Source: a virus
Reading direction: 5' to 3' (one strand)
Virus record (IMG/VR): IMGVR_UViG_3300034024_000020
Span: 32,001-96,000 of that record
Length of the DNA stretch: 64,000 nt
Of this stretch, positions 14,810-17,312 are shown one piece after another (within the stretch, counting starts at the first letter, position 1; every line of letters starts with the position of its first letter). Made by a program: the position numbers and the translations under genes. The notes under the pieces are model-generated. The model was not told the DNA's origin, made no database searches, and was given only the letters and a program-made list of their open reading frames with translations.

Positions 14810-14843
14810 AGTTCTTGACATTGTACTGAATTTTTCATATAAT
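14810..14843 (+). promoter_or_regulatory. phage sigma70-type promoter upstream of the large ncRNA
   Basis: TTGACA(14815)-N17-TATAAT(14838). Confidence 0.88.
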
Positions 14844-14869
14844 GGGATATCAAAACGACGGAAATAACA

Positions 14870-15716
14870 AGTTTGGCCGTATGGGGTCATTAGGGTAAGG
14901 GTGGCGACACCCCCAAAGCAGGGAAGCTTACATACCTGCGCTCGCAAGAGTCCATCTATACAAGCCTACATCACGCCCGAAAGGGTGTCTTCGTGAAGAG
15001 CGGAGATAGTCGTGAAGTGAGGTTGAGGAAAGAATTCTGGTCGATGTCCCGCAAGGAAGGCAGGCTGGAGAAGAACGGGGTAGTAGCCGTCTCTCAGCAC
15101 ACTAAACTCGCGAACGATGATGGTAAATGGTAGTGCCATTGTTCGATGCTTAGCGGCAAAGGGCTTCGGTGCAATTCAAACGGTTGGTGGGAGTCACACC
15201 CACGTAGATCGTGAAGAATGATTGAGTAGGTTTAGCAGACCAAAAGATAGCATAGGCGTGTTGTATTTCGTAGATTAATAGTCTGCGAAGCGACAGAGGT
15301 AGCACGTCTTGGTAAGTTAATGCAATTTGTTCAATGGTAGAACATTAGTCTATGAAACTGAGAGTGTTGGTTCGATTCCAACATTGCAAGCTATAAAAAC
15401 GCAAAGACTACCTCGGTATACAGCGAAAGTCATCTAATGCCGGACTAAAGAATTCGGCCTAGGAAAGCTCGCAAGGCAGACCTAGTTCATGGTAGATCGC
15501 TCATAAATCTCTTAGCGGAGGTTGAACGGCTCGCAAGGTCGGTGGGAAGGAAATCGTGGAGTAGTTGTATATGTCACCGCAAAAGCTAGCGGTATATCAA
15601 ATGAGCGATGATGTTCATTAGTGGCAACCCTGCCTCTGGAAACCTGATTAAGCACCTCGCAAAAGGTCCGCGTACGGTCAGAAGATTGAACAATTAATAG
15701 GTGTATTCTCAGCCTA
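14870..15716 (+). ncRNA. giant structured RNA, GOLLD-like (ends approximate)
   Basis: ~850 nt without a + strand ORF of 60 aa or more, own promoter, many GNRA/UUCG-capped hairpins, embedded tRNA, within a phage tRNA array. Confidence 0.72.
15320..15390 (+). tRNA. tRNA-like domain (anticodon AUG) embedded in the large RNA
   Basis: TGCAAT/ATTGCA, GTTC/GAAC D arm, TTAGT-CT ATG AA-ACTGA, GTTGG-TTCGATT-CCAAC; no CCA. Confidence 0.7.
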
Positions 15717-15733: not shown

Positions 15734-15767
15734 ATGTCGCCCAGGTTCGGAAGAAAGCAAGCGGCAT
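15734..15767 (+). ncRNA. mini RNA matching SRP (4.5S) helix 8
   Basis: CAGG-TTC-GGAA-GAA-AGCA on an ATGTCGC/GCGGCAT stem. Confidence 0.6.
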
Positions 15768-15770
15768 CAA

Positions 15771-15842
15771 GCCCCCATCGAAGGAGCGACGTTTGGCCTT
15801 CTAAGCCGAAATGTGTGGGTTCGAGTCCCTCTGGGGGTTCCA
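15771..15842 (+). tRNA. tRNA-Arg(UCU), compact non-canonical fold
   Basis: TTTGGC-CT TCT AA-GCCGAA, CCA. Confidence 0.82.
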
Positions 15843-15857
15843 TTTAAGGAGATGTAA

Positions 15858-16064
15858 GTGAACCTAATTTCTTGGATAGTTTTAGGCGGTTATGTCTTTA
15901 TTGCAGCATGTGTTCTGGCAGCGCTTCGAGTGGGAGCAGCTAAGGAAGGCGTGAAGCTCAATTGGGTCTATTTGTTCATTGCAGCAATTTGGCCTTTGTG
16001 GATAGTATTTTACCTTTGGGTTCTAGTATATAGCTGGGCCAATAGAGATAGAACGGTAGCGTAG
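15858..16064 (+). CDS. small 2-TM membrane protein
   Basis: AAGGAG SD; hydrophobic, IWP motif. Confidence 0.65.
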   Translation: MNLISWIVLGGYVFIAACVLAALRVGAAKEGVKLNWVYLFIAAIWPLWIVFYLWVLVYSWANRDRTVA

Positions 16065-16142: not shown

Positions 16143-16391
16143 ATGGGCGATTGGGCAGATAACGCTCTAGACAGGTTTTTAAGCGGACATTGGTCACCTT
16201 TTAATGGTGATACTAGAAAGCTTCGTCGAAGAGACCGGAAACGTCTCAAAGTAATTCAATGTCGCCATTGTGGTGCTAAACCACTGCGAATTGAAGAATT
16301 TGAGGAGAATGCTTGGCATTTAGCCGAGTACGACGAGAATAACGTTCTAACGCGGCATGTTTGTAAAATGAAGACCTTCAGAAATGTTTGA
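16143..16391 (+). CDS. hypothetical zinc-binding protein
   Basis: MGDWAD start, CxxC...HxC. Confidence 0.6.
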   Translation: MGDWADNALDRFLSGHWSPFNGDTRKLRRRDRKRLKVIQCRHCGAKPLRIEEFEENAWHLAEYDENNVLTRHVCKMKTFRNV

Positions 16392-17191: not shown

Positions 17192-17225
17192 AGCCCTCCA
17201 AGGAGACTTGGAGGGCTTTTTCTTT
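17192..17225 (+). terminator. intrinsic terminator closing the RNA-gene region
   Basis: AGCCCTCCAAG-GAGA-CTTGGAGGGCT + T run. Confidence 0.88.
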
Positions 17226-17278: not shown

Positions 17279-17312
17279 AGTTCTTGACATGTGACTTAGA
17301 AAGCCGTATAAT
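17279..17312 (+). promoter_or_regulatory. phage sigma70-type promoter
   Basis: TTGACA(17284)-N17-TATAAT(17307). Confidence 0.88.

Follow-up and report, generated by a model that had tools for sequence, protein, structure and literature searches.

The analysed stretch of DNA (the window, 64,000 nt) comprises bases 32001-96000 of a 115.7-kb IMG/VR virus record, rated complete by CheckV. It belongs to a T5-like phage, the major tail protein of which shares 32% identity with its counterparts in T5-like phages, among them Vibrio phage Gary (Demerecviridae). The region between 4 and 17 kb of the window carries 35 tRNA genes, and a short hairpin resembling the apex of bacterial SRP RNA lies in this array, surrounded by the following features.

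14815..14843, + strand, sigma-70-type promoter, TTGACA-17-TATAAT, 12/12 (consensus match, function putative)
15251..15715, + strand, conserved 3' part of a GOLLD RNA (Rfam RF02032, 156.9 bits versus a gathering score of 150)
15734..15767, + strand, mini SRP-RNA hairpin (sequence, Rfam, folding, shuffles)
15771..15842, + strand, tRNA-Arg(TCT) with encoded CCA (ARAGORN; Rfam tRNA, 32.9 bits)
15858..16064, + strand, 68-aa ORF with two hydrophobic stretches; ribosome-binding site AAGGAG (sequence)
16143-16391, + strand, 82-aa ORF, very basic, with CxxC and HxC motifs (sequence; no Pfam or PHROG family)
17192..17217, + strand, intrinsic-terminator-like hairpin of 11 pairs and then a T run (terminator scan)
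17284-17312, + strand, next 12/12 promoter, TTGACA-17-TATAAT (consensus match)

The GOLLD RNA, which probably starts near 14850, ends 18 nt before the SRP-like hairpin, and tRNA-Arg(TCT) begins 3 nt behind it. Since the first strong terminator-like hairpin after the promoter at 14815-14843 is that at 17192-17217, we infer a single transcription unit composed of GOLLD, the hairpin, tRNA-Arg, the 68-aa ORF, tRNA-Met, the 82-aa ORF, and two tRNA-Gly genes. That the hairpin would be expressed is suggested by its adjacency to the tRNA as well as by the promoter and the terminator. The 68-aa ORF, which has no Pfam or PHROG family, is a candidate small membrane protein, and the 82-aa ORF could be a small zinc-ribbon nucleic-acid binder. 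Inside the GOLLD RNA, positions 15320-15391 (+) form a tRNA-like module, which ARAGORN calls as a tRNA-His whose anticodon, ATG, is unusual; the Rfam tRNA model gives it 56 bits. The presence of two perfect TTGACA-17-TATAAT promoters within 2.5 kb (14815-14843 and 17284-17312) fits a canonical sigma-70 host. The genome of this phage encodes neither an Ffh M domain nor an SRP-type GTPase (FtsY included), and it gave no match to the tyrosine or serine recombinase families PF00589 and PF00239.

Read directly on the + strand, the 34 nt at 15734-15767 are made up of the following elements.

15734-15740 with 15761-15767, + strand, outer stem of 7 bp, ATGTCGC and GCGGCAT (sequence and fold)
C15741 opposite A15760, + strand, C.A flank (sequence)
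15742-15745 and 15756-15759, + strand, symmetric loop, CAGG and AGCA (Rfam alignment posterior 1.00)
15746-15748 with 15753-15755, + strand, inner 3-bp stem UUC/GAA, read as TTC and GAA (sequence and Rfam)
15749-15752, + strand, GGAA tetraloop (sequence and Rfam)

One of the seven outer pairs, T15737.G15764, is a G.U pair. The 34-mer alone folds to this hairpin at -10.1 kcal/mol, with a modest z of -1.9, and the fold is unchanged inside 151 nt of context. The Rfam model RF00169 aligned locally, placing 15738-15763 on model positions 34-59 of 97, and the aligned part consists of the helix-8 symmetric loop, the 3-bp stem and the GGAA tetraloop. The match scored 24.9 bits, below the gathering score of 40, with an E value of 0.0012 in a 101-nt search and 3.2e-4 over the whole 115.7-kb genome. 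All 14 defining bases are matched exactly and the stems of the hairpin are complementary. Furthermore, the window contains a single copy of the 14-base motif CAGGNNCGGAAGNNAGCA, and no copy arose in 100 dinucleotide shuffles of the window, which, together with the match to the SRP model, indicates that the hairpin is real and disfavours a chance match. We also considered the hairpin as an intrinsic terminator, but it is followed by CAAGCCCCC and was not picked up in the terminator scan; with no T run behind it, it is thus not a terminator.

The 5' asymmetric loop is absent from the hairpin, as both the sequence and the fold place a continuous 7-bp stem directly below the C.A flank, and helix 5 with the distal site is likewise absent, the hairpin being 34 nt long with tRNA-Arg starting immediately downstream. 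The original prediction, made from the sequence alone, had described this layout on a 7-bp stem, lying between a giant RNA and tRNA-Arg(UCU), without the asymmetric loop and the distal helix, and direct reading of the locus agreed with it exactly; the giant RNA is the GOLLD RNA (RF02032). It had also described the two departures from the conserved sequence as a single compensatory C-G to U-A change, and this is what the Rfam inner-stem consensus gCc/gGc against UUC/GAA in the window displays. The search with the bacterial small SRP model that it had proposed as a check returned the apex as a local alignment, but at 24.9 bits did not reach the gathering score. Because the hairpin lacks the asymmetric loop as well as helix 5 and the distal site, and scores under the Rfam threshold, we do not count it as a member of RF00169.

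SRP RNA is universal and part of the core equipment of cells, used for membrane-protein delivery. The hairpin shares with the bacterial small SRP RNA (4.5S, ffs, RF00169) the CAGG/AGCA symmetric loop, including the invariant A-C pair and the adjacent G, as well as the GGAA tetraloop and the 3-bp stem, and its C.A flank is found in many cellular SRP RNAs. In contrast, cellular SRP RNAs are ~75-115 nt long and possess the asymmetric loop, helix 5 and the distal site, all of which the 34-nt hairpin lacks, and unlike them the hairpin lies in the tRNA operon of a lytic-type phage, on an outer stem unrelated to cellular sequences. The 20-mer at its apex, CCAGGTTCGGAAGAAAGCAA, is nevertheless a natural SRP RNA variant, found in at least 120 cellular genomes from a broad range of phyla; its carriers among the matches listed include Bacteroidota, Ignavibacteriota, Acidobacteriota, Spirochaetota, some Proteobacteria, DPANN archaea, and others. 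Although the 20-mer is common in Bacteroidota SRP RNAs, the perfect sigma-70 promoters of the window argue against a Bacteroidota host.

In the cellular copies among the matches listed, the 20-mer is almost always flanked by a 3-bp stem and then an asymmetric-loop context (CCG/CGGT or CCC/GGGT), and none of these copies has the GC-closed continuous stem of the window hairpin. The identity of the hairpin to cellular ffs ends at the 20-mer, with no residue of the cellular flanks left. The lack of this continuous stem in the cellular copies thus indicates that the apex was redesigned on a new stem, rather than copied as a piece of a host gene. Among the matches listed, 93 of 112 cellular 20-mers lie in hairpins of at least 70 nt and one was scored short, although this rests on a rough automated fold that scored the window hairpin itself as long via weak flanking pairs; the size classes of the phage elements described below were therefore taken from inspection of the folds.

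Conservation in related phages, to which the original prediction had looked for support, was not found within the relatives reached. No SRP-like hairpin was detected, by regular expression or with the covariance model R1, in 43 distant-relative loci, which surround homologues of two neighbouring proteins with at most 52% and 45% identity, and phage T5 and Vibrio phage Gary also lack it. A BLAST search of the 1-kb hairpin region against cultured phages gave no match, while the hairpin and an E. coli-type apex, searched by BLAST against 50,697 cultured phage records, gave chance or host-like matches only.

SRP elements were found, however, in other uncultured phages. Two huge-phage contigs, L002 (372 kb) and L003 (229 kb), contain the exact 20-mer as the apex of full-length SRP RNAs located in tRNA arrays.

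L002:11344-11427, - strand, full-length SRP RNA, Bacteroidota-like
L003:5256-5358, - strand, full-length SRP RNA, Bacteroidota-like

These two RNAs score 42.3 bits with RF00169 (cut-off 40) and 53.3 versus 55.2 with Bacteroidales_small_SRP, and each is followed ~470 nt downstream by a GOLLD RNA (226.6 and 185.9 bits). Further full-length phage SRP RNAs are present in L012/L054 and L095. The full-length phage RNAs form hairpins of 85-105 nt with the asymmetric loop and a long basal helix; like the window hairpin, they are phage-borne and lie in tRNA arrays, whereas the window hairpin consists of the apex only.

Scanning IMG/VR completely for the C..A-flanked motif, we recovered 25 loci; the inner stem is complementary in 19 of them, and each of these 19 has at least three outer pairs. 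Among these are at least seven distinct elements, other than that of the window, that form short hairpins without the asymmetric loop.

L023/L033, 5-bp stem, directly 3' of tRNA-Gly, with up to 38 tRNAs in the locus
L102, 10 bp, ~10 nt before tRNA-Arg(CCG), in a 436-kb contig with terminal repeats
L120, 9 bp, in a 417-kb contig, with a sigma-70-like TTGACA-17-TATAAA promoter just upstream
L131, 12 bp, with a T run behind the hairpin
L132, 16 bp, between tRNA-Gln and tRNA-Phe
L133 and L134, short hairpins without the asymmetric loop

The short loop-less elements reside in the tRNA arrays of uncultured phages of 41-436 kb, most of them separated by 1-20 nt from a same-strand tRNA. Each outer stem is a perfect helix, 5-16 bp long, but the sequences are unrelated, and the inner-stem variants differ. 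Other short elements retain the asymmetric loop, namely L122/L129 and, from a scan for the U..G-flanked motif that also returned further full-length ones, L314 and L317, each 4-5 nt before a tRNA. The phage elements thus form a size continuum from full-length through 44-60 nt to 30-34 nt, and in all of them the tetraloop is retained, three base pairs away from the symmetric loop. A metagenome scan for the window-like GC-closed motif yielded only the L023/L033 element again and cellular SRP RNAs.

We next to these structural comparisons evaluated covariation over 18 phage elements, in which 91.6% of the cells are paired and 41 cells are double changes; the covariation score was reached by none of 500 shuffles, and slid controls collapsed. 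The search pattern fixed the loop bases, so that their invariance is partly a result of the search, and two inner-stem pairs served as a selection filter; because these positions were pre-selected, it is the three outer pairs that constitute the independent covariation evidence. A comparison independent of the search pattern is provided by a 44-nt element shared by three phage contigs.

L122:877-906, L129:7593-7622 and L136, - strand, 44-nt SRP domain-IV RNA retaining both loops (phage contigs of 101-194 kb)

Between L122 and L129/L136, this element differs at only two positions, which together make one compensatory C-G to U-A pair, while both of its flanks have diverged and contain indels. 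A conserved promoter-like site, TTGACA-17-(T/C)ATTAG, lies upstream of the 44-nt RNA in all three contigs. The identification of the window hairpin as a helix-8 (domain IV) apex, which was the core of the original prediction, is accordingly supported by the local Rfam alignment, by the natural cellular variant and by the recurrence with covariation in unrelated phages.

We also searched the mini-bearing phage records for associated genes. No second SRP RNA was present in the five records searched whole, and the four of these searched for an Ffh M domain gave none above the cut-off. Two mini-bearing phages gave SRP_SPB matches of 14.8 and 12.4 bits, which are below the cut-off and were treated as noise, the 14.8-bit one being out of frame inside a longer ORF. 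The minis in five mini-bearing records scored 22.6-38.3 bits, under the Rfam threshold, and standard annotation therefore misses them. In five mini-bearing records, several of them incomplete, we found no marker protein in common with the phage of the window.

The neighbourhood of an SRP element and GOLLD is common to L002, L003 and the window. A further pair occurs in the 417-kb phage (G002, the record of L120).

G002:340269-340723, - strand, GOLLD, 148.8 bits, just under the cut-off
G002:346520-346549, - strand, loop-less mini-SRP hairpin, 5.8 kb from the GOLLD

GOLLD as an obligatory partner of the SRP hairpin was rejected, as it was not found in 9 other phages tested. The sequence GGTGTATTCT, present upstream of both the window and the L120 hairpins, does not extend to a GOLLD remnant and was treated as chance.

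The window hairpin has the same architecture as the other short phage SRP-apex hairpins, the stems of which covary, and the same placement a few nucleotides from tRNA genes. It fits a provisional phage mini-SRP class, characterized by an SRP apex on a short self-closing stem, in a tRNA array, without an Ffh gene in the phage. In the literature searched, from which subscription journals were outside the coverage, we found no report of a phage-encoded SRP RNA or of short phage SRP-apex hairpins, and a term search of the huge-phage survey PMC7162821 found no mention of SRP. The T4 species 1 and 2 RNAs, as well as GOLLD and ROOL next to phage tRNAs, are also stable non-tRNA RNAs co-transcribed and co-processed with phage tRNAs, but they have no recognisable cellular counterpart, whereas that of the window hairpin is unmistakable. 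Laboratory minimal 4.5S domain-IV constructs reportedly comprised a 28-mer for NMR and 43-49-mers for the M-domain complex, and share with the phage hairpin the design of a symmetric loop and GGAA tetraloop on a short clamp stem, with the difference that the laboratory ones are man-made. The crystallised 4.5S domain-IV complexes reportedly kept the asymmetric loop.

The window hairpin is, in our judgement, very probably a real SRP-derived functional element: it keeps the two apical recognition elements of helix 8, at their native 3-bp spacing, on a 7-bp stem of unrelated sequence. SRP54/Ffh reads the symmetric loop through its M domain and also contacts the asymmetric loop (PMC4605306). The NG domain of the receptor FtsY docks first on the tetraloop, and GTP hydrolysis is triggered at the distal RNA site (PMC4737761). 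The explanation that we favour, and to which we give about an even chance, is that the phage encodes here an authentic miniature of SRP RNA, maintained by selection, which would be freed in the course of tRNA processing, bind the Ffh of the host and more probably act as a competitor or modulator than as a replacement. In this scheme, the promoter at 14815 would drive a GOLLD-hairpin-tRNA precursor, from which the enzymes that mature the flanking tRNA would excise the hairpin, the RNase P cut at the 5' end of tRNA-Arg, 3 nt downstream, setting its 3' end. The released RNA of ~34-37 nt would bind host Ffh, more weakly than the host 4.5S RNA does, and would meet or recruit FtsY via the tetraloop, yet could not complete the cycle normally, so that it may compete with or modulate the SRP cycle of the host. 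Binding to Ffh is about as likely as not, or slightly more so, and, provided that Ffh is bound, a competitor is a little more plausible than a working substitute. The absence of the distal site and the asymmetric loop is what leads us to lean towards a competitor or modulator over a full replacement; on the other hand, the missing asymmetric loop also counts against this explanation, since the affinity may be far below that of the competing host 4.5S RNA.

The hairpin could instead be a working minimal SRP RNA, which binds Ffh and supplies or boosts the targeting of phage membrane proteins, for example when the host SRP RNA is depleted or damaged in infection. We rate this as nearly as likely as the best reading and, taken by itself, as rather improbable. 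The full-length SRP RNAs of other phages, with their distal helix, suggest that such a supply is useful, and the tetraloop with its 3-bp spacing to the symmetric loop is kept in all elements. Moreover, the 68-aa ORF with its two hydrophobic stretches would belong to the same operon as the hairpin, and the link to small membrane proteins of the phage, proposed in the original prediction, comes down to this one candidate. Batey and colleagues are said to have found in 2000 that domain-IV-only 4.5S constructs supported the growth of E. coli. The window hairpin, however, lacks both the asymmetric loop and the distal site that triggers the GTPase (PMC4737761). Cells also normally have their own SRP RNA, and as long as this host RNA persists, there is little to gain from a weaker copy. 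We know of no loss of host SRP RNA in infection. A bait for a partner other than Ffh, such as a phage protein, a host nuclease or a defence factor that reads SRP RNA, would be comparable to phage tRNAs facing anticodon nucleases, and the missing asymmetric loop would matter less for a reader of the apex only. The hairpin indeed lies among tRNAs, and a T5 tRNA neutralises the tRNA-targeting defence PARIS (PMC11464382). Nonetheless, no conserved candidate partner gene adjoins the elements, nor did the literature searched contain an SRP RNA-targeting factor, and we consider such a bait quite unlikely. To our knowledge, no factor of this kind has been described.

The patchy distribution, with no hairpin in the distant relatives, T5 or Gary, and the continuum in phages from full-length through 44-60 nt to 30-34 nt would also suit a decaying remnant, either left over from a phage SRP RNA of formerly full length or derived from a captured fragment, and persisting as a harmless stable hairpin between RNA genes. 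However, the perfect outer stems of 5-16 bp with unrelated sequences in at least seven other elements look like repeated redesign and not erosion, the cellular flanks are gone entirely while the loops and the tetraloop are intact, and one loop-less element (L120) has its own promoter; we thus hold a remnant to be somewhat less likely still. Hairpins between tRNA genes are common, and the element might in principle be a chance hairpin or a generic spacer or processing signal. It might also be an attP copy of a partial host ffs, since temperate phages can integrate into ffs and then carry a part of it (PMC12540744). This group of explanations is very improbable, as the motif appears in 0 of 100 shuffles, no T run follows the hairpin as it would in a terminator, the genome has no tyrosine or serine recombinase in a T5-like and hence lytic type of phage, and the ffs identity stops at the 20-mer on a hairpin that closes on itself.

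A bolder form of the competitor reading, which we regard as unlikely, is that the loop-less minis are a dedicated phage weapon against co-translational targeting: produced in bulk from tRNA operons, they would load Ffh, recruit FtsY, and trap SRP together with its receptor, because there is no distal site to trigger GTP hydrolysis. If true, host membrane-protein insertion would be shut down, including that of membrane-bound defence effectors. We know of no described phage precedent for RNA-based host takeover of this type. Phage minis may tap or jam host membrane-protein delivery; as inhibitors, they would be a new type of RNA-based host takeover, and if phages do carry a stripped SRP RNA in their tRNA operons, membrane-protein delivery joins decoding (tRNAs, tmRNA) in their translation kit. 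The versions of 30-45 nt found in nature amount to an evolutionary experiment on the minimal functional SRP RNA, and the mini hairpins are ready constructs with which the symmetric loop and the tetraloop can be tested without the asymmetric loop and the distal site.

Two minor observations concern the tRNA arrays of other phages. In the 372-kb phage, the array also contains, at L002:3643-3758 (-), a sub-threshold match to Y RNA-like YrlA (44.9 bits versus 69). In a 183-kb phage, a mini-SRP hairpin in the tRNA array (L301, G003:165421-168479) lies ~1.1 kb upstream of a tmRNA gene (120.3 bits).
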